Assembly (NCBI GenBank): GCA_965215145.1
Contig: OZ244038.1
Coordinates: 1,340,579 to 1,404,578 of the forward strand
Direction of reading: 5' to 3'
Length of the DNA stretch: 64,000 nucleotides
Source: Rhodothermales bacterium
Lineage (GTDB): Bacteria > Bacteroidota > Rhodothermia > Rhodothermales > JANQRZ01
Part shown: piece by piece, positions 10,586-40,600 of the stretch
Position numbering within the stretch: position 1 is the stretch's first letter
How the letters are laid out: each line of letters opens with the position of its first letter
Program-made: the position numbers and the translations under genes
Notes under the pieces: generated by a model
Databases searched by the model: none
The model's input: only the letters and a program-made list of their open reading frames with translations
Told to the model about the DNA's origin: nothing

Positions 10586-11374
10586 GTGGCCGTCCCGCTC
10601 CGCCTTCTCCCCCCCCGGCCGGTGACCGACCCGCCGCGCCCGCGCCCCGAGGGCGCCCCATTGCGGCTGGCCCTCGCTCTGCTCGCGGAGCGGGACGTGG
10701 CCGCCGTGCGGGCGTGCTGCCCGCCCCCCGTCGCGGCGGAGGCCGTTGGGGAGGAGGCTCCGTTAAGCGGCGCCTTCGACGCCCTGCTCGTCGGGTGGGA
10801 CGAGGCGGGCGACGGCGACTTCCAACGGTGGGCGCTGCGGGCGCGGACCGCCGGGCTCTACGTCTTCGCCCTCTGCGGCCCGGCCGACCGCGCCGCCGCC
10901 CTCGACGCCGGCGCCGACGCGGCCGTCGCGCACCCCCTCGACCCGGAGGTGCTCCGCGCGCAGGTGCGCGCCCTCCGCCGCCTCACCACCGGCGAGGACA
11001 CCCCGACGCCGCCGGACGGGACGCCGCCGGACGGGCAGCGCGCCGCCGCGCAGCCCCCCGAAGCCCTCGGCCCGCTCCGGCTCGACCGGCGGGCGCGGAC
11101 GGCGACGGTGGCGGGCGCGGACCTCCCCCTCACACTCAAGGAGTTCGACCTCCTCGCCCACCTCCTCGACCACGCCGGGGCGTGCTGCTCGCGCGACGAG
11201 ATCCTCCGCGACGTCTGGGGGATCGACTTCGAGACCGGCACGAACACCATCGACGTCTTCGTCTACGCCCTCCGGCGGAAGCTCCGCAGCCGCGGGCTCT
11301 CCGGCGCGATCCAGACCGTCCGCGGCGTCGGCTACCGCCTCGCGCCGGACGCCCTCACGGCCCCGCCCTCCTGA
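10586..11374 (+). CDS. OmpR/PhoB-type winged-helix regulator with degenerate (pseudo-)receiver domain
   Basis: C-terminal LTLKEFDLLAHLLDHAG..SRDEILRDVWGIDFETGTNTIDVFVYALRRKL..IQTVRGVGYRL is a clear Trans_reg_C. The N-terminal receiver-like region lacks the usual DD pocket and has C and H where the conserved T/S and K normally sit. GTG start uncertain. Confidence 0.7.
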   Translation: MAVPLRLLPPRPVTDPPRPRPEGAPLRLALALLAERDVAAVRACCPPPVAAEAVGEEAPLSGAFDALLVGWDEAGDGDFQRWALRARTAGLYVFALCGPADRAAALDAGADAAVAHPLDPEVLRAQVRALRRLTTGEDTPTPPDGTPPDGQRAAAQPPEALGPLRLDRRARTATVAGADLPLTLKEFDLLAHLLDHAGACCSRDEILRDVWGIDFETGTNTIDVFVYALRRKLRSRGLSGAIQTVRGVGYRLAPDALTAPPS

Positions 11375-11379
11375 CCCCG

Positions 11380-11883
11380 ATGCCCGACTCCTCCACCGGC
11401 GCCGCCACGGGCGGCCAGGTCCGCGTCTCCGCCGCCGTGCTCGACCGGCTCACGACGGTCGCGGCCAGCGAGGTCCCCGGCGTGCTCCACACCGAGAGCT
11501 ACGTCGGCGGCGCCGTCGTGGGCGGGGTGATCGGCGGGGCCGTCGGGTTCGCGCAGGGCGGCCCGGCGGGCGCGGCGGCGGCGGCAGCGGCGGGCTCCGT
11601 CGCGGGGGCGGCGGCGGCCCACCTCCTCCACGAGCGGCGCCGCCAGCAGGAGCTGGCCCCCCTCGACGGCGACGTGGCGCCTGAGCTGGACGTCCGCATC
11701 GTCGCGCGGTACGGGGAGGACCTCCACGCCCTGGCCGAGCAGGTGCGCGGCAGCGTCGAGGCCGCGCTCCGGGAGACGCTGGGGCTCCGCCCGAGCGCCG
11801 TCCGCGTCGAGGTGGTCGATGTGGCGGACCCCGGCTCCGAGCCCGCCCCGGCTCCCTACCCCGGCCCGCCGGCACCGCCATGA
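11380..11883 (+). CDS. Asp23/Gls24-family protein with Gly/Ala-rich hydrophobic insertion
   Basis: ATG 5 nt after the regulator stop. VSAAVLDRLTTVAASEVPGV.. and ..ELDVRIVARYGEDLHALAEQVRGSVEAALRETLGLRPSAVRVEVVDV fit Asp23. The insert is YVGGAVVGGVIGGAVGFAQGGPAGAAAAAAAGSVAGAAAA. Confidence 0.65.
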   Translation: MPDSSTGAATGGQVRVSAAVLDRLTTVAASEVPGVLHTESYVGGAVVGGVIGGAVGFAQGGPAGAAAAAAAGSVAGAAAAHLLHERRRQQELAPLDGDVAPELDVRIVARYGEDLHALAEQVRGSVEAALRETLGLRPSAVRVEVVDVADPGSEPAPAPYPGPPAPP

Positions 11884-12293
11884 CGGCCGCCGACCCCGTC
11901 GAGGAGGCCCGGAGCTACCGCGCCGCGCTCGCCCCGATGCGGGGGAGCGGCTCGGAGGACGGGTGGCTCCTGGCCGCCGCCGCGCTCCGGCAGGCCGCCG
12001 TCGGGGTGCCCGAGGTGGACGGCCTCGCCGACGCGGGCGCGTTCCAGACCCGCGGGCGCGGCCCCGCCGTCCTCGGCATCGCCCTCTCACCCCGGCTCGA
12101 CGGGAGCGTCCGCGCCGACGTGGGGCTCGTGCTGGCATCCTCGGCGCTGGCCGAGCCGGATCGGTTCGCGGCGGCGCTGCGGCTCGTCCGGCAGCGCCTC
12201 CGGGCGACGTGGGAGCGGCTCGGCTCCGGCACCCCCCTGGACCTCCACCTCCACGTCGTGGACGTGGGGCCGCAGGCGCGGGAGGGGGTTTAA
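11880..12293 (+). CDS. Asp23-like protein (divergent)
   Basis: ATGA start/stop overlap with the previous gene. C-terminal VRADVGLVLASSALAEPDRFAAALRLVRQRLRATWERLG..LDLHLHVVDV follows the Asp23 pattern. Confidence 0.45.
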   Translation: MTAADPVEEARSYRAALAPMRGSGSEDGWLLAAAALRQAAVGVPEVDGLADAGAFQTRGRGPAVLGIALSPRLDGSVRADVGLVLASSALAEPDRFAAALRLVRQRLRATWERLGSGTPLDLHLHVVDVGPQAREGV

Positions 12294-12354
12294 TGCGCTC
12301 ATCATAAACCACTAAGCCGCTGCTCATGCACGCCTGCTACCGGCGCCGCCAGCT

Positions 12355-13008
12355 TTGGACCGCCCCTCTTCCGCAGCGGCGCCCGCCCGCCCCGTGAACC
12401 CCCGCCTCCTCTACGGCCTGCTCCGCCTCGCCGCCCTCCTCGTGGGCGCGGCGCTGCTGCTCGGCGGCCTCGTCCTGCTGGCCCACAGCCTCGACGCGAC
12501 GGGGCCCTTCCGCGCGCTGCTCGGCGGGGGCGGGCTCGCCCTCGGGCTCGACCTGACGGAGTTCCCGCTGCGCGAGCGGTGGGTGTGGGCCGCCGCCGCC
12601 GTGGGGGTCGCGCTGCTGGGCGGGGCGCTGCTCGCGCTGGCCCTCGCGCCGACGGCCGAGCAGCGCGAGCGGAGCCGGCGCGTCCGCCTCTCGGGGCACA
12701 GCCGCAACGGGCTCTACGGCAGCGGCGAGGTCACCGTCTCGATGCGGAGCCTCTACGCCCTCGTCGTCCACGAGGCCGAGCGCGACCCCGCCGTGCGCGA
12801 GGCCGACCCCTCGCTCCGGCTTCAGCGCGACGGGTGGCACCTCGCCTGCCGCCTCGTCGTCACGCCCGAGGCCGTGCTGCCGGAGGTGGCCGCCCGCCTG
12901 AAGCCCCGCCTCAAGGACGCCCTCGAGCGCCACACCGGCCTCCCCGTAGCCCGCACCGACCTCGACGTCCAGCTCTTCGCCCTCGACGCCCGCCAGCGCG
13001 TCTACTGA
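12355..13008 (+). CDS. AmaP-like membrane anchor protein (alkaline-shock operon type)
   Basis: Two N-terminal TM helices, then GEVTVSMRSLYALVVHEAERDPAVREA..LACRLVVTPEAVLPEVAARLKPRLKDALERHTGLPVARTDLDV. Sits directly before the DUF2273-like and Asp23 genes. Confidence 0.55.
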   Translation: MDRPSSAAAPARPVNPRLLYGLLRLAALLVGAALLLGGLVLLAHSLDATGPFRALLGGGGLALGLDLTEFPLRERWVWAAAAVGVALLGGALLALALAPTAEQRERSRRVRLSGHSRNGLYGSGEVTVSMRSLYALVVHEAERDPAVREADPSLRLQRDGWHLACRLVVTPEAVLPEVAARLKPRLKDALERHTGLPVARTDLDVQLFALDARQRVY

Positions 13009-13034
13009 GCGCGCCCCGCCCCGAGCCTGATCCG

Positions 13035-13340
13035 ATGGGACCCCACGACCCGTTCCCTCCCCGTACCGACCGCCCCGGCTCCGGCCTGGGGGCTCCGCCG
13101 CCAGCCCCTCCCAGCGGGGGCGCCTCTCCGGCGCCACGCTCGCCGCGCACGGGTGCCCTCGCCGGCCTCACGCTCGGGGCCGCGTTCGGGTTCGTCGTGG
13201 TGGTGGCGGGGGTGGGAGCCGCGCTGCTGGTCCTCTTCTGCGCCGCCGTCGGGGCCGCCCTCGGCGCCGTCGTCTACGGCGCCCTCGCCGGCCGGCTCGA
13301 CCCGGCGGCGGCGTGGCGCTCGCTCTGGCGCTCCCCCTGA
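13035..13340 (+). CDS. Small integral membrane protein, DUF2273-like
   Basis: ATG 13035. Pro-rich N-terminus, then GALAGLTLGAAFGFVVVVAGVGAALLVLFCAAVGAALGAVVYGAL (two Gly/Ala-rich TM helices). Positioned between the AmaP-like and Asp23 genes. Confidence 0.5.
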   Translation: MGPHDPFPPRTDRPGSGLGAPPPAPPSGGASPAPRSPRTGALAGLTLGAAFGFVVVVAGVGAALLVLFCAAVGAALGAVVYGALAGRLDPAAAWRSLWRSP

Positions 13341-13388
13341 CACTCTGGCGCTCCCCCTGACGCTCCCCTCACCCAACCCCCTCCCCTC

Positions 13389-13886
13389 ATGGCTAAGACC
13401 CAGACCACTCCCGAGAAGGCCGGCGGCAACACGGGCTCCCCCCGCCGCGCCGGCGCGGACCTGATCGTCCCCGACGGGGCCTCCGTGCTCACCGGCGACG
13501 ACGGCCGCACCATCGTCCACAACCAGGTCGTCGCCAAGATCGCCGGGCTGGCCGTGCAGGAGATCGAGGGGGTCAACCGGCTCGTGCCCTACGGCGCCGG
13601 GCAGGCCGTGACCTCGTTCGCCAAGAACATCACGCGCAGCGACATGCACGACCTCGGGGTGCACGTCGAGGTCGGGGAGCGCGAGGCGGCCGTGGACGTC
13701 CGCGTCGTGACGGACTACGGCGCCAGCATCCCCGCCATCGCCGACGCCGTGCGCCGGAACGTCTCGGACCGGATCGGGGGGATGACCGGGCTGAAGGTGG
13801 TCGAGGTCAACATCGACGTGATCGACCTGTACTTCCCCGAGGAGGAGCAGGAGCCGGCCCCCGCACCGACGACGCGCGTGCAGTAG
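13389..13886 (+). CDS. Asp23/Gls24-family envelope stress protein
   Basis: TIVHNQVVAKIAGLAVQEIEGVNRL..VHVEVGEREAAVDVRVVTDYGASIPAIADAVRRNVSDRIGGMTGLKVVEVNIDVIDL is a canonical Asp23 pattern. Confidence 0.8.
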   Translation: MAKTQTTPEKAGGNTGSPRRAGADLIVPDGASVLTGDDGRTIVHNQVVAKIAGLAVQEIEGVNRLVPYGAGQAVTSFAKNITRSDMHDLGVHVEVGEREAAVDVRVVTDYGASIPAIADAVRRNVSDRIGGMTGLKVVEVNIDVIDLYFPEEEQEPAPAPTTRVQ

Positions 13887-14053
13887 CCACATGCAGTAGC
13901 CACCGTGAGTAGCCGGACGCGGGCAGCGGCCCCGTCGATGGCCTGCGCCAGCGGCTCACGAACCTCGCCCGACCGGCGGCGTAACCCGGCCGGAGCGCGT
14001 CCCTCCCGGGTCGCCGGACCCCTCTTTCCCCCTCTGACAACGCCGTCCCTCCC

Positions 14054-14572
14054 ATGCTGCCATTCTCCCGACTCTCCCGCCTGCTCGTGCTCCTCGCCTT
14101 CGCGGGTGCAGGCCTCGTCGGCTGCGACTCCGAAGACCCCGTCGCCATCCCCACGCCGGAGGACCTCGAGGGCCTCTACGACTTCACCGAGTACCGGTTC
14201 GTGCCTGACGCCTCGGCCGTCGAGCCGGCCAACGTGCTCGACACACTCGTGGCGGCGCAGACGAGCATGGAGCTCTTCGGGAGTGGGCGGGTGATCTTCC
14301 GCTACAAGGTCGAGGAGGAGCCGAGCAACGCGCTCGACGGTTCCTTCGACCTCAACGCGACGCAGCTCCGGCTGCGCCTCGTGGGCGAGGGCGCGCTGAC
14401 GCGGCTGCTGCTCACCTCGCCCCTCATCTTCGAGCGGAACGACGAGGCCGGCCGGCTCACGCTGGACCAGGAGACCACGGCGAACCTCGCCGCCTACGAC
14501 CCCGACCGCTACGAGGGCCTGAACAGCGTCGACGGCACGCTCATGATCACCCTCGTCCGCCGCTCCGAGTAG
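14054..14572 (+). CDS. Lipoprotein of unknown function
   Basis: Lipobox LLAFAGAGLVGCDS. About 150-aa beta-rich mature part, no motif recognised. Confidence 0.5.
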   Translation: MLPFSRLSRLLVLLAFAGAGLVGCDSEDPVAIPTPEDLEGLYDFTEYRFVPDASAVEPANVLDTLVAAQTSMELFGSGRVIFRYKVEEEPSNALDGSFDLNATQLRLRLVGEGALTRLLLTSPLIFERNDEAGRLTLDQETTANLAAYDPDRYEGLNSVDGTLMITLVRRSE

Positions 14573-14668
14573 CACTGCCCGCTCCCCCTTTGGCCGTTCC
14601 ATGCGGAATGGCCTGCACCCGCCGGCTGCCGAAGGCGCGGCGTTCCCTTCTCTCGCACCTCCCCTCCT

Positions 14669-17266
14669 ATGATGCGCTCCCGCCCGCGTCCGGCCTCCCC
14701 GCGCCTTACCGGTCTCGTCCTGCTCCTCGCTCTCGCCTGTGCCACGGCGGCGCCCGCCGAAGCTCAGCTCCGCGGCGTCGGCTACCGGTTCTCGCCGACG
14801 GCCGGCTACGTCTCGTTCGAGGACAACGCCGGCCTCACCGACGGCTTCCTCTACGGCGGTGGGCTCGGCCTGAGCTTCGGGGAGTTCGTCGAGCTCGGCG
14901 GGCTCTACCTCGTCGGCAACGACTTCGAGACGGACTTCTCAGGCTTCTCGGGGCTCGAAGACGACACCGACCTCGCTGGCATGTTCGAGGCGATCCCGGC
15001 GCGCGAGGTGGACGTCCGCCGCTACGGCGGCGAGCTCACGCTCCGGCTCAGCAGCACCGGCCTCGCCCCCTTCCTCGTCGGCGGCGCCGGCGTCATCCGG
15101 TTCGACCCCGAGGGCCGGGACCCGAGCGAGAACATCTACCTCTCCGGCGGTGCGGGCATCCAGCTCACCGGGGCCGACCGGTTCGCGCTCGCGCTCCAGG
15201 GCCAGCTCCTGACCTACCGCTACAACCCCGCCAGCACCCTCCTCACCGCCGAGGATTTCGCCGGCCTCAGCACCGCGGACCGGATGGCCGTGAACCGGGA
15301 CCTCCTCGTCCGCAACCTCGCCTTGCGGGCCTCGCTCCGGCTCTACCTCGGCGGGCGCCGCCCCGGCGAGCTGACCGACGTCGACCGGGCCTACCTCGAG
15401 CAGTTCTCCGGCGGCCTCAGCGGGCTCAGCCTCCAGGTCGAGCCGTTCTACGGGCGGCTCAACTTCAACGACGACCTCCCCTACCGCGACCAGTCGTTCG
15501 TCGGCGCCGAGGCCGGCGTGAACCTCGGCCCGCTCGTGGGGCTCCGGGGGTTCTACATGCGCGGCGTGGACTCCGGCGACCCCTTCGACTTCCAGCCCAT
15601 CCAGCTCTTCGGCGGGCACGCCAAGCTCCGGCTCTCCGAGGGCGCCGGCGTCGTCCCCTTCATCACCGTCGGCGCCGGCTACCTCGACGTGCTGAGCGAC
15701 TACGGGGAGCTCGAGGCGGCCGAGCTTTTCGGCCCCCGCGGCGGCACCATCGGCTTCGTCGGGCAGGAGCGGTTCGAGGACAAGCCGTTCGCGCAGGGCG
15801 GCGCCGGGCTCGAGGTCCCGATCAGCCCGCGCCTCCGGCTCCACGGCGAGGCCCGCGCCTTCGTCATCTCGAACCAGGAGGCCGGCGACGTGAGCCGGCC
15901 GGAGGAGGTCAAGATCAGCCCGATGTACCGCGGCGGCCTCACCTTCGGCCTCGGCGGCTCGACGGGCGACGCGCCGGCCGTCGTCACGCGCGCGGAGCTC
16001 GAGCGGCAACTCGCCGAGGAGCGGCGCGAGGCCGCCGAGGAGTACGTCGCGCTCGAACAGGAGCTGGCCGAGGCCCGCCTCCGGGGGGACTCGCTCGCGG
16101 CGGCGCGGATCGAGGCTGAGCAGGCCCGCGCGCTCGAGATGGCGACGCAGCAGCCGGCGCCGGCCGCCCTGGAGGAGCCCGTGATGGTCCGGCAGCCGGA
16201 CGGCCGGGTGGTCGTGCAGCAGCCGGCCGAGCGCCGCTCCGGCGACCTCGTGGTGGTGGGGGAGGAGGTCCGCACCGCGCAGGGCGACCGGATCGTGACG
16301 ATCCCGCTGCCGGAGCAGGGCGAGCTCTACGTCCGCTACGGCGACCCCGGCGGGGTCCAGATCGAGTCCACCTTCGAGGGCGAGGAGGCCGGCGCCCGCG
16401 CCGCCGCCCCCGCCTCGGCACAGGCCGCGGCGCCGAGCGACGAGGAGCTGCGCGCCCTGATCCGCGAGGCCGTCGGCGACGCCGTCGCCGCCGAGGGCGA
16501 GGCCGCCGACGAGGACGCCCGTGTGGCCGACCTCGAACGGCAGCTCGAAGACCTCGTCCGCTCCGAGATCGAGCGCGAGCAGGTCGAGGGCGTCTCCGAG
16601 GCCGAGCTCGAGCTGATGGAGCGCCGCCTGCTCGACCGCCTCACCGACGAGATCCGCGACCTCCGCGGGGACGTCCGCGACGACCTGCGTGATGACCGGG
16701 ACGATGCCCCCGTGATCGTGCAGACCCCGCAGCCGGGCGTGGTCGCCCCCGTCACCGGCCAGGGTGCGGTGGCCGTGGCCGAGCCGGCGGTGGTGGAGCG
16801 GCAGGGGTTCGTCGGGATCTCGCCCGTGGCCGGGTTCGCCTTCGGGCGGGGGCCGGAGCAGGTGCTGATCGGCCTCCGCACCGAGTACCACCCCGGCGGC
16901 CTCTCCGACCTCCGGTACTACCCCGAGCTGCTGCTCGGCGTCGGCGGCGAGCGCTCGTTCGCCTTCAACGTGAACGGCATCTTCGGCGTCCCCGGCTTCG
17001 ACGACCAGCTCGCCCCCTATGCCGGCGTCGGCCTCGGCGTCGTCAGCTACGCCGGCGACGGCGACGACAGCGGCGGCAACACCGACCCCTTCTTCGGGAA
17101 CGTGGACGACGGCGGCGACGACGTACCGGGCTTCCTGCTCACGCTCAACCTCGCGCTCGGCGCCGAGTTCGAGGTGGGCCGGAACCGGGTCTTCACCGAG
17201 CTCAACACGGCCAACCTGACCCGGTTCTACCGGCTCCTCGTCGGCTACCGCTTCGACTTCGACTGA
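14669..17266 (+). CDS. 865-aa outer-membrane protein: beta-barrel-like modules flanking an acidic coiled-coil region
   Basis: Signal peptide ..AAPAEAQ. Residues about 35-445 and about 700-865 have Gly/aromatic-rich alternating strands typical of small OM barrels. Residues about 447-690 are Glu/Arg/Asp-rich heptad-like sequence (ELERQLAEERREAAEEYVALEQELAEARL.., DLERQLEDLVRSEIEREQVEG..). Confidence 0.6.
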   Translation: MMRSRPRPASPRLTGLVLLLALACATAAPAEAQLRGVGYRFSPTAGYVSFEDNAGLTDGFLYGGGLGLSFGEFVELGGLYLVGNDFETDFSGFSGLEDDTDLAGMFEAIPAREVDVRRYGGELTLRLSSTGLAPFLVGGAGVIRFDPEGRDPSENIYLSGGAGIQLTGADRFALALQGQLLTYRYNPASTLLTAEDFAGLSTADRMAVNRDLLVRNLALRASLRLYLGGRRPGELTDVDRAYLEQFSGGLSGLSLQVEPFYGRLNFNDDLPYRDQSFVGAEAGVNLGPLVGLRGFYMRGVDSGDPFDFQPIQLFGGHAKLRLSEGAGVVPFITVGAGYLDVLSDYGELEAAELFGPRGGTIGFVGQERFEDKPFAQGGAGLEVPISPRLRLHGEARAFVISNQEAGDVSRPEEVKISPMYRGGLTFGLGGSTGDAPAVVTRAELERQLAEERREAAEEYVALEQELAEARLRGDSLAAARIEAEQARALEMATQQPAPAALEEPVMVRQPDGRVVVQQPAERRSGDLVVVGEEVRTAQGDRIVTIPLPEQGELYVRYGDPGGVQIESTFEGEEAGARAAAPASAQAAAPSDEELRALIREAVGDAVAAEGEAADEDARVADLERQLEDLVRSEIEREQVEGVSEAELELMERRLLDRLTDEIRDLRGDVRDDLRDDRDDAPVIVQTPQPGVVAPVTGQGAVAVAEPAVVERQGFVGISPVAGFAFGRGPEQVLIGLRTEYHPGGLSDLRYYPELLLGVGGERSFAFNVNGIFGVPGFDDQLAPYAGVGLGVVSYAGDGDDSGGNTDPFFGNVDDGGDDVPGFLLTLNLALGAEFEVGRNRVFTELNTANLTRFYRLLVGYRFDFD

Positions 17267-17270
17267 GCCC

Positions 17271-18347
17271 ATGCGCGCGACCCGCCTCCTCCTGCCCCTC
17301 GCCGTGGTGACCCTCGCGGTTGCTCCCGTCCGAGCACAGACCGACACCACGGCCGCGCGGCCAACGGCGGGCGTGAGTGGCACCTCGGACCGCGTGGCGA
17401 CGGTGCCGCTCCCGAACGGCAGCGGGGTCTTCTACTACCGCTCGGGCCGGCCCGGCGGCGTCCGCATCCGCTCGCGCGCCGGCCGCCCGGCTCCGACGGA
17501 GCGGGGCCTCCGCGCTGACGACCTCCGCAGTGCCCTCGGCGACGTCGAGCCCGGTACGCGGGAGGCCCTCCGCAGCGGCGAGCCCGTCACCCGCCTCGAC
17601 CTGCTCCGCCTCGAGCTCGCGCTCCGCCGCGCCCTCGACGACAAGCTCGACGGCCTCCGCCTCCAGCCCTACGCCGCCGACCGCGACCGGGTCTACCGCG
17701 ACGGGAGCGGCCGGCCGGTGGTCGTCGTGCCGGGGCAGGGCGTGACCACGCTGCCGCAGGGGTTCGCGCCGACCCAGGGGACGCCAGCGCCGACCGGCCA
17801 GCCGTCTACGCCGCCGAGGGTGGAGGTCCCCCGGTCCGAGCTGGCGCCGGTCGCGCCGGGGGCGGTGACCGCGACGGAGGTGGAGCGTGCCTTGCTCGAC
17901 GCCGGGCTCTTCCGCGCCGTCGAGGTCCACTTCGAGTTCGACGAGGCCACGCTGCTGCCGACGGCGGAGCGGGCGCTCGACACCATCGGCGGGGTGCTCG
18001 TCCGGTACCCGAGCCTGGAGGTCGGCATCGGGGGGCACACCGACAGCATCGGCTCGGACGCCTACAACCTCCAGCTCTCGCAGGCCCGCGCCGCGGCCGT
18101 CCGCGCCTACCTCCTGGTCCGGTTCCCCGGCATCGCCCCCGAGCGCCTCGCCGCACGCGGGTTCGGCGAGGCGGAGCCCATCGCCACCAACGCCAACCCG
18201 ACGGGGCGGACGCTGAACCGCCGAGTGGAGTTCGTCGTGCTCAACCCGGAGGAGGTCCCGACGGTCGAGCCGGAGCCCGTGGAGGACCGGCTCCGGCGGC
18301 TGATCCAGGAGGAGCTGCGCGAGGCGCGCGAGGGGGACGACGGTTGA
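17271..18347 (+). CDS. OmpA-family peptidoglycan-binding protein
   Basis: Starts 4 nt after the previous stop. Signal peptide. C-terminal GGHTDSIGSDAYNLQLSQARAAAVRAYL..GFGEAEPIATNANPTGRTLNRRVEFVV is a canonical OmpA_C domain. Confidence 0.85.
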   Translation: MRATRLLLPLAVVTLAVAPVRAQTDTTAARPTAGVSGTSDRVATVPLPNGSGVFYYRSGRPGGVRIRSRAGRPAPTERGLRADDLRSALGDVEPGTREALRSGEPVTRLDLLRLELALRRALDDKLDGLRLQPYAADRDRVYRDGSGRPVVVVPGQGVTTLPQGFAPTQGTPAPTGQPSTPPRVEVPRSELAPVAPGAVTATEVERALLDAGLFRAVEVHFEFDEATLLPTAERALDTIGGVLVRYPSLEVGIGGHTDSIGSDAYNLQLSQARAAAVRAYLLVRFPGIAPERLAARGFGEAEPIATNANPTGRTLNRRVEFVVLNPEEVPTVEPEPVEDRLRRLIQEELREAREGDDG

Positions 18348-18359
18348 TGCGGGCAGCGG

Positions 18360-19157
18360 TCAGAGCCGGACCAGCTCCGCGTCGTCGTAGTCCCGGTCGG
18401 CGCCCGCCACGAGGTCGGCCTCGTCGTCGCGGCGGCGGAGGAGGCCGGGGAGGCCGGCGCTCCGCCAGATCCGCTTCATCGCCCGGAGCTCCTCGGCGAT
18501 GCCGTCGAGGTCGCGCTGGGGGATGAGCCCGCGGATCGCCTTCATCTCGCGGCGGCTGCCGCCCGAGAGGGCGGTGCCGCGGTTGTAGACGAGCGAGAGG
18601 AGCGCGCCCTGCGCGTCGGCCGGGAGGTCCTCGATGCCGGGGTAGGTGCGGCGGGTGCGGCGGGCGTACTCCGGCAGCGTCTGCGTGTAGAACACCCGCT
18701 CGGCCGCGTCGAGCGGCACCGTCACCGTCTTGACCCGGCCGACGGCGCGGCGGGCGTCGTCGCCCTTGAGCCCCGCCACGGTCAGCAGCTTGGCGAGGTC
18801 GGCGTCGGTGAGGAGCCCGCGCCACGTCTTCTCAATCTGGTTGGCCGCGGCGTACCCGAGGTCGTAGCCGATGCCGACGGTGACGCCGCTCTGCCCGCCC
18901 GGCCAGACGGGGTGCTGGAGCCGCCGCCAGTAGTTCGCCGCCGAGCCGATCTCGTGGTCCACGATGAGGCCGATGCTCCGCTTCGAAACGATGAGGTTGT
19001 GGGGCTCAGGGGCATCGGAGGCGTCGGGCACGGCGTCGCAGGCGTCGAGGACCGCCTCAAGCCGCGTCAGCGTGATCGGGCCGACGAGGCCGTCGGCGGA
19101 GACGCCGAGGCGGCGCTGGATGGCCTGGATACGCTCGCGGACGGTGAGGGTGCTCAT
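18360..19157 (-). CDS. Peptidoglycan-binding domain + lysozyme-like (phage/pesticin-type muramidase) protein
   Basis: ATG 19157 (MSTLTVRERIQAIQRRLGVSADGLVGPITL is PG_binding_1-like). Then SIGLIVDHEIGS..VWPGGQSGVTVGIGYDLGY resembles GH24/pesticin-type lysozymes. No signal peptide. Confidence 0.55.
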   Translation of the reverse strand: MSTLTVRERIQAIQRRLGVSADGLVGPITLTRLEAVLDACDAVPDASDAPEPHNLIVSKRSIGLIVDHEIGSAANYWRRLQHPVWPGGQSGVTVGIGYDLGYAAANQIEKTWRGLLTDADLAKLLTVAGLKGDDARRAVGRVKTVTVPLDAAERVFYTQTLPEYARRTRRTYPGIEDLPADAQGALLSLVYNRGTALSGGSRREMKAIRGLIPQRDLDGIAEELRAMKRIWRSAGLPGLLRRRDDEADLVAGADRDYDDAELVRL

Positions 19158-19206
19158 GGCGGCGGGGGTCTCTGCATCAAGACGCCGGCAGGATACGGAT
19201 CCGCCT

Positions 19207-20253
19207 TCAACACGAGAGCCGCCGCAGCCTGCGCGGAAGGTCGTCCGGCAGCCGCCACGGCGCGCGGGGGATCCGCTCCCACCCGAACCGGGAGACGAGC
19301 GCCTGTGGCACCACCGGCTCCGGGCGGTCGAGCAGGCCGAGCGAGTGGGCCAGCGCGCCGACGACAGCTTCGGGAGGGACACCGGCCTCGCGCAGCGCCC
19401 GCAGCGTCAGCGCCGCGTCCCGCTTCGACAGCTTCTCGCCGGCGGCGTTGACGACGAGGGGGAGGTGGGCGTAGGCGGGCCGGCCGCTGCCGAGGGCCCC
19501 GATGAGCTGGATCTGCCGCGCCGTCGAGTCCAGCAGGTCGGCGCCGCGGACGACCTCGGTGACGCCCATCGCGAGGTCGTCCACGACGACGGCGAGCTGG
19601 TAGGCGTAGAGCCCGTCGCGGCGCTTGAGGACGAAGTCGCCCACGACCTCGGCCACGTCATCCGCCTGCGGGCCCAGCACGCGGTCCTCCCACCGAACGA
19701 CACCGTCGGCCACGCGGAGGCGCAGCGCGGCGTCCGGCCGCTCGGCGGAGGAGAAGGCGTCGAACCAGTCAATCGGGAGACCCTTCGGGCGGAGCGAAGC
19801 CGGATAGGGGGGGAGCCCCGAGGCCCCGTGCGGCGCCGAGGCGATTTCTACCAAGTCCTTCCGGGAGACGCGGCAGGGGAACAGCCGCCCGGCCTCCGCC
19901 AGCCGCCGCAGCGCCGCCTCGTAGACCGGTCCGCGCTCGCTCTGCCGGTACGGCGCGTGCGGCCCGCCGTCGGGTCCGTTGCTGGACCCCGGCCCCTCGT
20001 CCCAGTCGAGCCCGAGCCAGCGGAGGTCGTCCAGCGCGGCCTCGGCCGTGCCGGGCACGACGCGCGGAGGGTCGAGGTCCTCAATGCGCCAGACGAACGC
20101 GCCATCCTGGCTCCGCGCTGAGAGCCACGCCGCCAGCGCCGTCCGCGCGCTGCCGACGTGGAGAAGGCCGGTGGGAGAGGGGGCCCATCGGCCTCGGAGG
20201 GGGGACGTGTGCGGGGGCACGAGCGTTGTACCTTCGTCTAACCACCGCTCCAT
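19207..20253 (-). CDS. gluQ: Glutamyl-Q tRNA(Asp) synthetase (truncated GluRS paralogue)
   Basis: [19 protein letters not shown] (HIGH region), WRIEDLD and GEKLSKRD (KMSKS-like). Its length lacks an anticodon-binding domain. The true start may be the GTG near 20220. Confidence 0.75.
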
Positions 20254-20379: not shown

Positions 20380-25899
<5,520 letters not shown>

Positions 25900-34234: not shown

Positions 34235-35851
34235 ATGCGACGCTGCCCTCGCTCCGTGCTCCTTCTCACGCTTGCGGCCCTCTCGGCAGCGCCTGTGCAG
34301 GCGCAGGAGGTGCTGACGGAGGACGCGAAGCTCGTCGGCTCCGAGGCCGACCCCGCCTCGACGGTGGGGTGGAGCGTCAGCGCGGCCGAGGGCCTCGTCG
34401 TGGTGGGGGCGTGGCGCGACGACGAGTTCGGGGCGCTGGCCGGGGCGGCGTACGTCTTCGGCGAGGGGGCGGGGGGCTGGGCGGAGGAGGCGAAGCTCGT
34501 GGCTTCGGACGCCGCAGCGGGGGACACGTTCGGGTTCGCCGTGGCGGCGGGGTCCGAGTCGGGCTCGGACGTGGTGGTGGGGGCGCCGGGGACCTCGAGC
34601 GACCCGCGGAGCGACGCGGCCTACGTGTTCCGCCGTGGGGAAGAGGGGGCGTGGGCGGAGGAGGCGAAGCTGACCCCGTCGGATGGGGAGGAGACCAACG
34701 ACCAGTTCGGCCGCGCCGTCGCTGTGGCTGACAGCCTCGCTCTGATCACGGCCTACGGGGTGGTCAATCCGAACGGGACAACTGGGGCAGCCTACGCTTT
34801 CCGTCGCACCACGGAAGGGGGATGGGTAGAAGAGGCAAGGCTCACTACCACCGAAGGCACTGCCTTCAACGGGTTCGGTCGATCCGTCGCTGTTACCCCC
34901 GCCGACGGGGCGGGTCGTCCGGCCACAGCACTCATTGGCGCTCATGTTGATGAGAGCCAGATGGGTGCGGCCTATGCCTTCCGCCGTGCGCCCGATGGCA
35001 CATGGGTTGAGGAGGCGAAGCTCACCGCTCCTGACGGGGAACCTTTCGACCTCTTCGGCCTCGGCGTCTCCCTCGCCGTCACGGCCACCGGGGACCTCCT
35101 CGCCCTCGTCGGCTCCCTCGGCGACGACGGCGCCGGGGAGCAGACCGGGGCCGCCTACGTCTTCCGCCGCGAGCCCTCCGCCGCGCCCGGTGCCGACGGC
35201 ACCTGGGCCTTCGAGGCGAAGCTCACCGCCGCCGACGGCCAGATCGGCCAGCGCCTCGGCTGGGCCGTCGCCCTAGCCTCTGCGGAGGAGTCTGACGCCG
35301 ACGCCGTGGCCGTGCTCGGCGCCGACGGGGCCTACGGCTTCGCCGGCACCGTCCGCCTCTTCCGCCGTGACCTCGCCAGCGGTGCCGCGGGTGGGGAGCC
35401 GGTGTGGACGGAGGCGGCGGAGCTGTGGGCGAGCGACCGCGCGCCGGGCATGGAGCTCGGCTACTCGGTGGGAGTCTCGGGTACGTTTGCGGTGGCGGGG
35501 GCGCCGTACGCGGACCCGATGGGGGGGGCGGCCTACGTGTGGGACCTCCGGCGGGCGCTCCCGAGCGAGGCCCCCCCGCTTGCGGGCGGTCGGGAGGTCG
35601 AGCTCTCGGCGTGGCCGAACCCGGCGCGGGGGGCGGCGACGGTGGCGCTCCGCCTCGCGGCGTCGGCGCACGTCCGCCTCGTGGTCTACGACGGGCTCGG
35701 CCGCGCGGTCGGCGTGCTCTACGAGGGGCCGGCCGCGGCGGGGGAGACACTCGTCCGGCTCGACGCGGGGGAGTGGGCCCCGGGGGTGTACTTCCTCCGG
35801 CTCGAAGCGGAAGATGCGGTGGTGACGGTCCCCGTTACGGTTCTCGACTGA
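34235..35851 (+). CDS. Secreted FG-GAP-like beta-propeller repeat protein with T9SS C-terminal sorting domain
   Basis: Signal peptide. About seven repeats of ..EEAKL.A.D....D.FG.AVA......ALVGA..D.....GAAYVFRR... C-terminus AWPNPARGAATVALRL..VRLVVYDGLGRAVGVLYEG..LDAGEWAPGVYFLRLEA.. is Por secretion tail-like. Confidence 0.75.
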   Translation: MRRCPRSVLLLTLAALSAAPVQAQEVLTEDAKLVGSEADPASTVGWSVSAAEGLVVVGAWRDDEFGALAGAAYVFGEGAGGWAEEAKLVASDAAAGDTFGFAVAAGSESGSDVVVGAPGTSSDPRSDAAYVFRRGEEGAWAEEAKLTPSDGEETNDQFGRAVAVADSLALITAYGVVNPNGTTGAAYAFRRTTEGGWVEEARLTTTEGTAFNGFGRSVAVTPADGAGRPATALIGAHVDESQMGAAYAFRRAPDGTWVEEAKLTAPDGEPFDLFGLGVSLAVTATGDLLALVGSLGDDGAGEQTGAAYVFRREPSAAPGADGTWAFEAKLTAADGQIGQRLGWAVALASAEESDADAVAVLGADGAYGFAGTVRLFRRDLASGAAGGEPVWTEAAELWASDRAPGMELGYSVGVSGTFAVAGAPYADPMGGAAYVWDLRRALPSEAPPLAGGREVELSAWPNPARGAATVALRLAASAHVRLVVYDGLGRAVGVLYEGPAAAGETLVRLDAGEWAPGVYFLRLEAEDAVVTVPVTVLD

Positions 35852-35930
35852 CGCTGTCATGAACCCCACAAGCTCTCGTTCGCGGCGCTCTCCCGCCCTC
35901 GACTCATCGCGCCCTCCACCCCTCCTCACG

Positions 35931-37595
35931 ATGCCACTACGTACGATGCCACGCCTCCCGCTCCTCCTCTCCTTCCTCCTCACGCTCATCGTGGCCGTCG
36001 CGCTCGTGTCCCCGGCGTGGGCGCAGGAGGTGCTGACGGAGGACGCGAAGCTCGTCGGCTCCGACGCCGACTCGGTGGCGACCGCGGGGTGGAGCGTGGC
36101 CGCCGCGGACGGGCTCGTCGTGATGGGGGCGTGGCGCGACGACGAGTTCGGGCTCCAGGCCGGTGCCGCCTACATCTTTCGCGAGGGCGCGGGGGGCTGG
36201 GAGGAGGAGGCGAAGCTCGTGGCGAGCGATGCTGAGGCGTGGGACACGTTCGGGTGGGCCGTGGCAGCGGGGTCCGCGCCGGGCTCGGACGTGGTGGTCG
36301 TGGGGGCGCGGGGTACTGCGAGCGACCCCACGAGCGACGCCGCCTACGTCTTCCGCCACGAGGGGGGGGGGGCGTGGGTGGAGGAGGTAAAGCTCATTCC
36401 CACCGACGGTGATGGTGCCCACGATGCCTTTGGCGATGCCGTCGCCGTCGCCAACAACCTAGCCCTCGTCGGGGCCTTCGGCGCGGACGACTTCGGCGAC
36501 ACCTCCGGGGCGGCCTACACGTTCCGGCGCACTTTCGACGGAGAGTGGATCCAAGAATCTCGCCTCCTCGCCTCCGACGGAGCCGCCGGTGACGGGTTCG
36601 GCAGGAGCGTGGCTGTCTTCGCCCCAGGCGGCGCGAGCGGTCCACCCATCGCCCTAGTCGGAGCTCCGACGAAGGACGGGCCCTCGGAGAAGATCCAAAC
36701 GGGCGCGACCTACGCCTTCCGCCGCGCCGAAAACGGAGCGTGGGTGGAGGAGGCGAAGCTCACTGCCCCCGGTGCCGAAGCCTTCGACTCCTTCGGCATC
36801 GACGTCTCCATCGCTACTACACCCAGCGGGAACCTTCTCGCCCTCATCGGTGCTTACGGTGATGCTGAGGAAGAGCCGCAGACCGGCGCCGCTTACGTCT
36901 TCCGCCGCGAGCCTGCTACTACATCAGGCGGGGATGGGAGGTGGGTCTTCGAGGCCAAGCTCGCCGCCGCCGACGGCTCGGCCGGCCAGCGCCTCGGATG
37001 GTCCGTCGCTTTGGCCCCTGCGGAGGAGTCTGGCGCCGAGGCCGTCGCCGTGCTCGGCGCCGACGGGGCCTATGGCCTCACCGGCACCGTCCGCCTCTTC
37101 CGCCGCACCACCGTCGGCGGCGTGCCGGTGTGGGCGGAGGAGGCCGAGCTGTGGGCCTCCGACCGCGTGCCAGGGATGCGGCTCGGCCACGGCGTTGGGG
37201 CCTCGGGCGCTTATGCTGTCGCGGGCGCCCCGTACGTGGACGGCCTCGGCGGCCCGGCGGGCCGGGGTGCGGCCTACGTGTGGGACCTCCGCCGCGCCCT
37301 CCCGAACGAGGCGCCTCCCCCGCTCGGGGGCGGTGCCCCGCTCGGGCTCGTGGCTTACCCGAACCCCTCGGCGGGGGCCGCCACCGTCGCGCTCCGCCTC
37401 GTGGCGCCGTCGCACGTCCGCCTCGTGGTCTACGACGGGCTCGGCCGCGCGGTCGGCGTGCTCTACGAGGGGCCGGCCGCGGTGGGGGAGACACTCGTCC
37501 GGCTCGACGCGGGGGAGTGGGCCCCGGGGGTGTACTTCCTCCGGCTCCAGGCTGGCTCCGGGGCGGTGACGGCCCCCCTCACGATCCTTGACTGA
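35931..37595 (+). CDS. Secreted FG-GAP-like repeat protein with T9SS C-terminal domain (tandem paralogue)
   Basis: Start at ATG 35931 or 35946 (MPRLPLLLSFLL..). Same repeat architecture and C-terminal domain as the upstream gene. 56/70 residues are identical in the N-terminal stretch I aligned. Confidence 0.75.
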   Translation: MPLRTMPRLPLLLSFLLTLIVAVALVSPAWAQEVLTEDAKLVGSDADSVATAGWSVAAADGLVVMGAWRDDEFGLQAGAAYIFREGAGGWEEEAKLVASDAEAWDTFGWAVAAGSAPGSDVVVVGARGTASDPTSDAAYVFRHEGGGAWVEEVKLIPTDGDGAHDAFGDAVAVANNLALVGAFGADDFGDTSGAAYTFRRTFDGEWIQESRLLASDGAAGDGFGRSVAVFAPGGASGPPIALVGAPTKDGPSEKIQTGATYAFRRAENGAWVEEAKLTAPGAEAFDSFGIDVSIATTPSGNLLALIGAYGDAEEEPQTGAAYVFRREPATTSGGDGRWVFEAKLAAADGSAGQRLGWSVALAPAEESGAEAVAVLGADGAYGLTGTVRLFRRTTVGGVPVWAEEAELWASDRVPGMRLGHGVGASGAYAVAGAPYVDGLGGPAGRGAAYVWDLRRALPNEAPPPLGGGAPLGLVAYPNPSAGAATVALRLVAPSHVRLVVYDGLGRAVGVLYEGPAAVGETLVRLDAGEWAPGVYFLRLQAGSGAVTAPLTILD

Positions 37596-37690
37596 GTCCC
37601 AACGGAATCCCACGCGCGGGCCGCTCCGCTTGCGGCCTCTCGCCTCAACAAAGGCAACCCCGACGGCACCTCCACTCAACCCGCACTGCC

Positions 37691-40600
37691 ATGCGTACCA
37701 CCCCGCTCTGCCTCGCTGCTCTCCCCACTGTCCTCCTCGCACTCGCCCTGTCGCCGCCGTCCGCGGCACAGGTAGACGAGGAATGCTTCCTCCCGACACC
37801 CCCTCCCGGCGTTGACCGCAACGTCAACCCCGGCGCCAACCTCTACTTTCCCAATGAAGGCCGCATCAACGCCCTCTACGTCTTCGTCCAGCACAAGGAC
37901 GACCTCGGCGACGACGCCTCCACCACAGACCCCGTGACAGAGTGGCCTGCCATGCGAAGCCGGGGACCCGACCGGCTCCTCCCCGCCTGGGGACCGGACC
38001 GCCTCGCACTTCCCGGCAGTGACCCAGGTGACTACGCTGAGGGCTCCCTCAGCCATTACTACCACATGGTCTCGGGCGGGCGGTTCAAGCTCGAAGGGTA
38101 CGTCTACCCCGGGGTTTACATCCCCCCGCAGGACAAGGACTGGTACGGGGACAACCCCAGTACCTTCCCCAACGGGCAGGTCCGTCTCTCCCACGAGATC
38201 CTTTCGTGGGTGAACCAAAACCCTGAGGGCATTCCCTTCGACGAGCTCGACCGGTGGCAGAATGGGACAGCAGACGCGACGGAGGATACTGAAGATGGTT
38301 TTGTGGACATGGTCATCCTGCACTTCCGCAGCAACAACCTCGACGCGATGGGGGTCGGTTGTACAAACCCGTCAAACCCGGCGATAACGTCTCTGGGCTC
38401 AGGGTCATGCGCCGGAGGCCCCTACCGAACTCCCGACACCGATGGCTTCGAATCAGACCCCCTATTTCTAGGTTCGAAGCAGGTAATCGATAACATCGTC
38501 AACGGCTCCGGCGTCCTCAGCGCGGGGCGCGCCGTCGTCGGGAAAACGACCCCGCACGAGGTCGGTCACCGCCAGTTCGGCTACTACCACACGAGCGGCA
38601 CCAACACCTTCAGCGTCATGCACGGGAACTCCGCTCAGATGCTCATGGGCGCGTCTGACCGCGCGAAGCTCGGGTGGATCGAACTCGACACCCTCGACGC
38701 TTCCACCCTGACCCATCAGACTCTCACACTCGAAGACACCTTTGAGAGCGGACGCGCGCTCTACGTCATGGACGGGACGCCGGGCGAAGGCGACCTCATC
38801 ATCGAGGCGCGGGCGGGGACGAACTTCTGGGACCGACCCCCGGACGGGCAGAACTATGATGCCCACGACCCGCCCCTCGACGCGGCTCTGTATCTCCACC
38901 AGCCCGGCCTCATGGTCTATAAGCGGAACTCCTCAGGCTCGTTCTACTCCAGCATGGAGCGGACGGGCCTCGACTTCCGCCCCATGTACTACCTCCTTGT
39001 TGCTGACGGCTTCTCGGGTGCGCCCTACGCCGGCAACGTCCCCATCTACCTCACGCCCGGCTCCTCCTACACGCCCCTCTCTGTCTACCGATTCGGCTTC
39101 TACAATTCCGGCGGCGCTCTCGACGACCTCTTCGCTCTGACTGACATCGCTGCCACGGGCGACGGCTTCACCTTCGACGTGTGGGGGCAGGGCCGCTTCC
39201 TGTCCCAAGATGTGGTGGCGGCGAAGGAGGTAGCAGGTGTCTCTACGTTCACCACCGATGAGGCGCTCGGACGGGAGGCAGCTTGGGAGCTCCGAGGAGA
39301 GTTCGTGTTTAGTGATAGCGTGAAGGCCGCGGCTGACGGCGATCCCCTAAACATCCTTCTCGGTCCAGACGCGACTCTCACCTTCGACGGACCCGCCGCG
39401 TGGGCGGGCGAGCCGGACGCTCCCGTTCGTGTTGGCCGAGCCGACGCCGGTGCAGCGTGGGGCCGGCTCATCCTCCGCGATGACCCCGGCGGCACCCACA
39501 CCCTCCGCCACGTCCGCATCGAGGGCGGCACCGTCGGCCTCGACGTCCGGGCGCGCGGGAGCGCCGACCCCGCCGCTGTCGGCGCCGCCGTCACCGACGC
39601 CGCCCTCGTCGGCAACACCGTCGGCGTGCTCACGGACTTCGCCGGGTGCGGCACGGACTGCCGCGCCCAGCGCGCGCGGCTCGTGCTCGACCGCGTCCTC
39701 GTGGACTCCAGCGCCTGGTACGGCCTCTACGCCCGCAACGCCGACGTCGCCCTCTACGCCTCCACCGTCCGGAACAGCGGGCGCCACGGCGTCGTCTTCA
39801 CCAACGCCACCGCGACCGGCTTCGCCGAGAACGTGATCGAGGCGAACGGCGCCCCCGGCTCCTCCTACGACGGCCTCCGCGTCGCCGCCAACGGGAGCGT
39901 CCGCTCCGGGGCACGCGGGAACTTCGTCGGGCTGCCGGGGGGGCCGAGGCTGGCGGGGCGGAACCGGATCGCCGACAACGCCGACCACCAGGTGGCCTAC
40001 CTCGACGGCGGCTACCTCTTCCTCGGCGACGCCACCTCCGGCGGGTTCGACACCATCACCGAGCCCGGCACGGGCTGCCGTGTCTACAACGCCTCCGGGA
40101 GCATCCTCGAGGCGGAGTACACCTACTGGGGGACGACGACGGCCCCGCCAGCGAGCTTCTTCTGCGGGCCGTACCCCGTGGACGTGAGCCCCTTCCTCAC
40201 GGCCGACTCCACGGCCGGCTCCGGCTACCGCCCCGGCGAGGGCGCTCTGGTCGCCGCCCTCCCGGAGTCGGGCGGGCCGCGCGGCGACGTGGGTGGGGGG
40301 TACACCCTGGAGGCCCTCGCCGCCGAGATCCGCGCCGTCCGCGATGCCGTCGCAGCCGACGTGGCGGCGCCCGAGGCGGCCGGGAGCCTCCGTCTCCTCG
40401 GCGCGCTCCACCGCCTCGACGAGGCCGACCTCACCGGCGAGCGCGGAGCGACCACGGCGCTGCTCGAAGCCCTCCGCGCCGACCTCCACGCTGGCGGCCT
40501 CGCGCCTGCCCACCAGGCCACGGCGGAGCAGGCGCTGCTGGTCGAGGTGGAGTTCGCCCTCGGGGCCGAGCGCTACGACGTGGCGGACGACCTCGTGACG

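Follow-up and report, generated by a model that had tools for sequence, protein, structure and literature searches.

Gene content of the locus

The window analysed here, a stretch of 64,000 nucleotides from a Rhodothermales bacterium (NCBI GenBank assembly GCA_965215145.1, contig OZ244038.1, positions 1,340,579 to 1,404,578 of the forward strand), carries a conserved trio of genes encoding, in this order, a lipoprotein, an outer membrane protein (OMP) with three predicted β-barrels, and a protein with an OmpA_C domain, called the partner below (Table 1). The OMP gene had been singled out in an earlier reading of the nucleotide sequence and its open reading frames (ORFs), hereafter the sequence-only reading. 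All 865 codons of the gene translate without an internal stop, and the identical 865-aa protein is present among the called genes of public collections. The G+C content around the gene is approximately 70-78%, and spurious long ORFs are consequently common in the region. Two ORFs on the opposite strand, one of 814 aa (14939-17383, -) that overlaps the OMP gene and one of 295 aa (13715-14602, -) that overlaps real genes and has no Pfam match, are attributed to this high G+C content. The signal peptide that the sequence-only reading had proposed for the OMP is of type I, and its AEA↓Q cleavage site is well conserved, A32 being near-invariant and Q33 invariant among 53 homologues.

The partner gene begins 4 nt after the OMP stop codon (TGA-gccc-ATG), and the junction sequence together with the Pfam search bears out the earlier description of a closely spaced, barrel-less OmpA_C gene: no barrel match was found in the partner with Pfam. 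As the signal peptide of the partner is also of type I (VRA↓Q; 17271-17336), with no lipobox Cys, and as the protein has no barrel, it is without any membrane anchor. In OmpA and Pal the HTD...NxxLSxxRA residues of the OmpA_C domain bind diaminopimelate; these residues are found in the partner, and its D258, N266 and R273 are invariant in three orthologues. Matches of the partner to NCBIfam models for TraB-like outer-membrane exchange, TssL of the type VI secretion system, MotB, PorE and others reflect the generic OmpA_C domain only and lie far below the cut-offs, and these candidates were rejected. By prediction, Gln is the first residue of the mature OMP and of the mature partner, following a cleavage site of the AxA type, which fits the preference of Bacteroidetes reported for N-terminal Gln after signal peptidase I cleavage.

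Rubrivirga and Rhodocaloribacter likewise have the lipoprotein gene immediately before the OMP gene, with the lipobox Cys invariant, and tblastn places it upstream in approximately 33 Rhodothermales/Balneolales loci. Profile searches gave neither a Pfam nor a PDB sequence match for the lipoprotein, and they assigned no fold to it. Its Cys is followed by acidic residues (C-DSEDP), with CDS kept in three aligned orthologues. Acidic residues after the Cys are vaguely like the Bacteroidetes signal that exports lipoproteins to the cell surface.

Architecture of the outer membrane protein

The AlphaFold2 model of the OMP, based on a 53-sequence alignment, has a mean predicted local distance difference test score (pLDDT) of 77, rising to approximately 90 in the β regions, and it contains three blocks of exactly eight strands each, named here B1, B2 and B3. 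The sequence-only reading had described three barrel-like stretches of 8-10 strands; the three stretches are retained and the strand number becomes eight in each. At the sequence level, the Pfam family OMP_b-brl (PF13505) matches the OMP at aa 18-174, and a second match at approximately aa 262-405 appears once the protein is split. B2 is an end-to-end tandem duplicate of B1 (hhalign probability 99.4%, E 5.6e-21). No relationship of B3 to B1 or B2 was detectable with hhalign and the last 161 aa of the OMP have no Pfam match, so that the assignment of B3 as a barrel comes from the model. The consensus C-terminus of the family is GYRFxF, and an aromatic residue is found among the last three positions in 169 of the 252 family members; C-terminal aromatic endings of this type are typical of OMPs. 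A PDB sequence search with the OMP family profile gave no match, and the model TIGR04565 (OMP_myx_plus) scores 25.3 bits over aa 135-188 only, which fails the curated cut-off of 60 bits.

A more conventional explanation of such a protein would be a single 16- or 24-stranded barrel with a long loop, or a fusion of two genes through an assembly error or a frameshift, and both had been named by the sequence-only reading as tests of its proposal. When B1 and B2 are modelled alone (aa 30-435), AlphaFold gives a pLDDT of 89 and a predicted template modelling score of 0.83. In Foldseek comparisons against the PDB the strand order of this model aligns, with significant E-values, to the 14-18-stranded barrels OmpG, FadL, CymA, Omp32 and OmpM1, as it might if the barrel were a large one. 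Despite the confident model, however, these targets fail to superpose on it (template modelling score, TM, ≤0.21 by query; root mean square deviation 19-26 Å), which argues against a fused 16-stranded barrel, since such a barrel would superpose on targets of this kind. The model of the full-length OMP likewise aligns to 14-18-stranded barrels without superposing on them.

Covariation points in the same direction, as far as a noisy mean-field direct coupling analysis can be read (323 sequences, effective number 229, 557 columns). While 20 of the 21 hairpins within the modules have z ≥1.1, the last strand of B1 and the first strand of B2 have z -0.4, i.e., covariation is absent at the junction. 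The pairings expected of fused barrels have z values of -0.4, 1.3, 0.5 and -0.5, and the signal for closure within the modules is itself weak (z 0.9, 2.0 and 1.1), a point in favour of the single barrel. Against it also stands the duplication of the eight-strand unit as a whole. B1, B2 and B3 would thus close into separate barrels, as the superpositions and the covariation indicate indirectly, the covariation being the weaker part of this argument. As to the fusion of genes, collinear full-length homologues are found in 72 further genomes and among more than 250 proteins, and a frameshift fusion is thereby ruled out. Taken together, it is very improbable that the OMP is one large barrel or the artefact of a fusion.

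The region between B2 and B3 is approximately 280 aa long in the OMP and variable in length in the family. Residues 436-712 comprise 64 Asp and Glu and 31 Lys and Arg (net charge -33), and helices are predicted by AlphaFold2 at aa 441-493, 591-608, 615-637 and 644-675. The stretch of aa 498-590 is modelled with low confidence and includes a non-helical conserved motif at aa 541-562, and aa 676-712 are predicted to be disordered and are rich in Pro and Val. A crude heptad scan of the central region gave a weak signal (scores 0.3-0.5). The acidic coiled coil of approximately 240 aa that the sequence-only reading had placed here is therefore acidic and helical as described; the length is closer to 280 aa, and with so weak a heptad signal the coiled coil is no more than putative. 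Termini of OMPs are periplasmic and eight-stranded barrels are too narrow for passage of the chain. Because the number of strands preceding the central region is even (8+8) and the termini of the OMP are periplasmic, this region should be periplasmic and not surface-exposed, which favours the former in the earlier wording of a periplasmic or surface spacer. With 1.5 Å per residue, the helices of 53 aa and approximately 73 aa are estimated to reach roughly 8-11 nm, a length comparable to the spacing of outer membrane and peptidoglycan.

A motif common to the outer membrane protein and its partner

The central region of the OMP and the N-terminal part of the partner contain related sequences. 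In BLASTP, aa 536-606 of the OMP and aa 36-91 of the partner are 39% identical (E 2e-8), and a profile of the central region matches a profile of 32 partner N-termini with an hhalign probability of 95% (E 3.5e-8). Collinear with this motif there is a second, helical one, VSEAELELMERRLLDRL at aa 639-667 of the OMP and VTRLDLLRLELALRRAL at aa 103-131 of the partner (hhalign E 4.9e-4), for which pairwise matches were found in three loci (L010, L031 and L066). Among the 53 homologues of the OMP, P546 of the first motif is invariant and G551, E552, Y554, R556 and G558 are conserved in at least 90%. Yet the pLDDT of the motif in the model of the OMP monomer is only 40-48; near-invariance combined with such low confidence fits a segment that folds on binding.

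The comparison was also made locus by locus, with BLASTP of the gene pairs against shuffled controls. In six Saprospiraceae loci the middle region of the OMP has 'S.IRMSPAEFENLIEEILE', which matches the mature N-terminus of the partner, 'VQMSPAEYQNLIEIILKA', with E-values of 2e-6 to 1e-2, the shuffled controls reaching approximately 21 bits or less. The sequence of the Saprospiraceae motif differs from that of the Rhodothermales one, while the positions are the same. The OMPs of these six loci are mostly two-barrel proteins, and their partners have a long helical region before the OmpA_C domain. These comparisons show the motifs of the OMP and the partner to be homologous.

Table 1. Features of the trio and of the genes preceding it (coordinates in the window; residue numbers in the respective protein)
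Feature	Residues (aa)	Coordinates	Strand	Basis
Lipoprotein gene, 172 aa; lipobox LVGC, Cys24		14054..14572	+	translation; exact protein in public gene calls
Three-barrel OMP gene, 865 aa		14669..17266	+	ORF translation, Pfam, AlphaFold2
OMP signal peptide; cleavage AEA↓Q, mature N-terminus Gln	1-32	14669..14764	+	sequence, conservation, predicted helix 11-26
Barrel B1, 8 predicted strands	37-228	14777..15352	+	PF13505, AlphaFold2 pLDDT ~90, hairpin covariation
B1-B2 linker, 25 aa, LGGRRPGELTDVDRAYLEQFSGG	229-253	15353..15427	+	conservation; helix 237-247 (AlphaFold2)
Barrel B2, 8 predicted strands	254-428	15428..15952	+	PF13505 on split query, hhalign, AlphaFold2
Long acidic helix H1, 53 residues, pLDDT ~92	441-493	15989..16147	+	AlphaFold2
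Shared motif in OMP, DRIVTIPLPEQGELYVRYGDPGGVQIES...SDEELRALIREAVGD, low AlphaFold2 confidence	536-606	16274..16486	+	BLASTP, hhalign, near-invariant residues
Helical segment H2, three helices; second shared motif inside	591-675	16439..16693	+	AlphaFold2
Barrel B3, 8 predicted strands	713-863	16805..17257	+	AlphaFold2, hhalign, C-termini
Partner gene, 358 aa: signal peptide, shared motif, Pro-rich linker, OmpA_C		17271..18347	+	Pfam, NCBIfam, sequence
Partner copy of motif, DRVATVPLPNGSGVFYYRSGRPGGVRIRS...LRADDLRSALGD	36-91	17376..17543	+	BLASTP, hhalign, per-locus BLASTP
OmpA_C domain of partner, HTD...NxxLSxxRA residues	221-317	17931..18221	+	PF00691, E 1.6e-20
OmpR-type winged-helix gene		~11069-11341	+	
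Gly-zipper/Asp23-like gene		11413-11832	+	
Small ORF		12009-12272	+	
DUF6286-like gene		12667-13002	+	
Asp23 gene		13473-13883	+	

Distribution of the family and linkage of the partner gene

A profile search over 1.84 billion cluster representatives (clusters at 50% identity) returned 462 clusters matching the OMP family profile at E ≤1e-30. In the Rhodothermales the family includes members from Rubricoccaceae, Salinibacter/Salinivenus, Rhodocaloribacter and others, and it extends to Balneolales, Saprospiraceae, Chitinophagales and Cytophagales (Persicitalea, Arundinibacter); a locus of Gemmatimonadaceae (L070) also encodes a complete protein with B1, B2, the central region and B3. By homology, the organism of the window is Rubricoccaceae-like. 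The central region ranges from approximately 220 to 440 aa across the family, its longer versions being strongly helical. Two-barrel variants without B3 were found as well (P0052, P0058, P0065 and P0072), P0058 being the 645-aa protein of Rubricoccus marinus. Such variants retain the central region and the partner (e.g., in locus L010), and this retention where B3 has been lost suggests that the motif matters more than B3.

The occurrence of the partner was surveyed with an OmpA_C hidden Markov model for genes located directly downstream on the same strand in 68 assessable loci, the gene starts being approximate. The partner was directly 3' of the OMP gene in 35 of these, including 27 of the 34 loci from Rhodothermales/Balneolales and 6 of 18 from Saprospiraceae/Chitinophagales. 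Overlaps of 1-4 nt between the calls of the two genes are frequent; otherwise the calls mostly abut or lie from a few to approximately 200 nt apart. None of the 252 family proteins contains an OmpA_C domain (PF00691) itself, i.e., in this set the barrels and OmpA_C are always on separate chains. In one Rhodothermales metagenome-assembled genome, MFD03250.bin.2.54, the OMP gene is present twice, on separate contigs (L032 and L074), and an OmpA_C gene lies downstream of each copy.

Relation to known envelope proteins

The sequence-only reading did not recognize the architecture of the OMP; it has, however, already been catalogued. A "poly-8" superfamily of Bacteroidetes proteins, in which two or three barrels are combined with an alpha-helical linker, was described by Solan, Pereira, Lupas, Kolodny and Ben-Tal (Solan et al., 2021, PNAS; PMC8346858). 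Like the poly-8 proteins, the OMP has at least two non-overlapping matches to families of eight-stranded outer membrane β-barrels in one chain (PF13505 twice) and a linker domain that is alpha-helical (four predicted helices), and its barrels close separately, as indicated indirectly by the model and covariation. Two- and three-barrel forms from Bacteroidetes are known in both, the OMP family reaching Gemmatimonadota in addition. Compared with the published description, the OMP has every feature stated for poly-8. The 8-8 forms are considered there to derive from 8-8-8 forms by deletion (Solan et al., 2021; PMC8346858). That study is a computational catalogue and gives no function, partner or operon for the poly-8 group with helical linkers (Solan et al., 2021; PMC8346858), and a full-text literature search found no later work on this group. 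The OMP is thus a real and conserved protein of a kind that has been catalogued computationally and never studied experimentally. What is new here are the motif shared by the OMP and the partner, the linkage of the partner gene without fusion and the conserved lipoprotein upstream.

Several better known proteins share parts with the trio. OmpA of E. coli combines an eight-stranded PF13505-type barrel with a PF00691 domain, the same two parts as found here; in contrast to the single chain of OmpA, they are on separate polypeptides, unfused in 252 family members, and there are three barrels with a helical region of 280 aa between them. Tethers of the OmpM/SlpA type from Negativicutes and Deinococcus-Thermus have a long periplasmic helical stalk that connects the barrel anchor with an SLH domain for wall binding. 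The barrel anchor and helical stalk resemble the OMP, and OmpM1 is among its weak Foldseek matches, but OmpM/SlpA proteins have one large barrel, one chain and a trimeric coiled coil, whereas the heptad signal of the OMP is weak, and no SLH domain match was found in the OMP or the partner. The partner also matches the OmpA_C models of Pal, YiaD, YfiB and LptF, over the domain only. With an OmpA_C lipoprotein model it reaches 109.8 bits at best, where the cut-off is 175, all scores being below the curated cut-offs. The Pal, YiaD and YfiB lipoproteins have a lipobox Cys, whereas the partner is without the Cys and has an N-terminal motif of its own in common with the OMP.

A putative split tether and its alternatives

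The best reading of the locus, to which we would give a probability of roughly 0.45, is that the OMP and the partner tie the outer membrane to peptidoglycan as a split, non-covalent tether. The lipoprotein, the three-barrel OMP and the OmpA_C protein would be a single envelope module, with membrane anchor and wall binder residing on separate polypeptides. The OMP would sit in the outer membrane as three separate eight-stranded barrels and, with all the barrel ends periplasmic, the acidic 280-aa region would hang between B2 and B3 like a handle, presenting near its middle the non-helical conserved motif followed by the helix motif. The partner, a soluble periplasmic protein, would carry its copy of the motif after the signal peptide and the putatively peptidoglycan-binding OmpA_C domain at the far end. 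Pairing of the homologous motifs could then couple the partner, bound to the wall, with the stalk anchored in the membrane, and the helical region, projecting towards the cell wall, would set the length of the tether. A fuller version of this proposal is still a little more tentative: the OMP and the partner might form a heteromeric and previously undescribed 'split OmpA', with a multi-barrel anchor, a periplasmic stalk that sets the spacing, recognition by pairing of homologous motifs and possibly the lipoprotein as a third subunit, widespread in Rhodothermales/Balneolales and present in some Saprospiraceae. Of the split tether that the sequence-only reading had suggested, the multi-barrel OMP with its helical spacer and the OmpA_C neighbour are upheld, and the conservation of that neighbour and the shared motif are added; the tethering itself we infer.

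Multi-barrel OMPs are known from sequence catalogues only, and the poly-8 helical-linker group is without function, partner or structure. The bacterial group in question is not known to have Braun's lipoprotein. The locus supplies a testable hypothesis, a two-chain tether whose anchor and wall binder recognize each other via a shared motif. If true, this would add a novel type of connection between outer membrane and cell wall, and it would offer a handle on the insertion of several barrels per chain by BAM and on the width of the periplasm in Bacteroidota-like bacteria.

A number of observations weigh against the tether. The match between the helix motifs is weak (hhalign probability 32%), and pairwise similarity of the OMP and the partner exceeds the shuffled controls in only approximately 13 of the 35 gene pairs. 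The N-terminal region of the partner is fast-evolving, a search with its first 215 aa returning 7 proteins only. An adjacent partner was found in none of the 7 Cytophagales and none of the 3 Gemmatimonadota loci, and many Saprospiraceae loci are also without one. The tether model gives no reason for the presence of three barrels, no role for the lipoprotein and no account of the partnerless loci, and the motif could be shared simply through common descent, or because both proteins bind the same third component. The main alternative is that the OMP is an autonomous structural or adhesive protein, whose helical region self-associates or spaces the barrels, and that the OmpA_C gene is merely co-regulated with it, the motif being an ancestral relic through which the two proteins make no contact. 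An adjacent partner is absent in about half of the assessable loci, including all those of Cytophagales and Gemmatimonadota; the family is large and retains the architecture without it, and roles in avidity or adhesion have been suggested for the poly-8 proteins (Solan et al., 2021; PMC8346858). It is, however, difficult to reconcile a relic with the near-invariance of the motif in the OMP, which argues for a binding function, and with the recurrence of motif sharing in Saprospiraceae gene pairs, where the sequence is another one. In most of the OMP-partner pairs the stop codon of one gene and the start codon of the next are closely coupled, and the partner is itself unanchored. For these reasons an autonomous OMP is regarded as unlikely, though it is the most serious competitor of the tether.

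The genes preceding the trio allow yet another explanation, according to which the trio and the upstream Asp23 and DUF6286 genes and OmpR-type regulator make up an envelope-stress module, the trio being its outer-membrane end, with protection against stress or its sensing as the main role and not constitutive tethering. In the window, Asp23 and DUF6286 genes indeed immediately precede the trio on the same strand, as they do in eight further loci from at least three genera (L002, L005, L007, L012, L014, L044, L046 and L075), and the OmpR-type regulator is found upstream of the trio in the window and in L002. The Asp23 linkage is absent, however, in Rubrivirga marina (L001) and beyond Rhodothermales, and a physical link between the Asp23 proteins and the trio is not evident. 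Asp23 proteins of the species studied so far are located in the cytoplasm or associated with the inner membrane. Stress as the main role is therefore considered improbable, and it can be combined with the tether model instead of excluding it.

Other genes in the window

The five genes preceding the trio occupy positions 11069-13886 of the forward strand. On the other side, an ORF of 340 aa (18360-19382, -) is convergent with the partner gene; its Pfam matches, to phage lysozyme/pesticin and to PG_binding_1, are weak and below threshold. Judging from these matches, its product may be a peptidoglycan hydrolase encoded beside a peptidoglycan-binding protein; the pairing of this ORF with the partner is not conserved in L001 and L002. 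Further downstream, a hybrid histidine kinase of 1839 aa (20380-25899, +) contains a HAMP/HAMP_2 array, with 7-8 matched stretches per Pfam model, together with GAF, HisKA and HATPase domains and three receiver domains. Three stretches at 35612-41128 resemble a small protein of Rhodocaloribacter in its C-terminal part; that protein carries the annotation FlgD_ig/Por_Secre_tail. By this similarity they are probably genes for cargo of type IX secretion, which fits a Bacteroidota-like organism.

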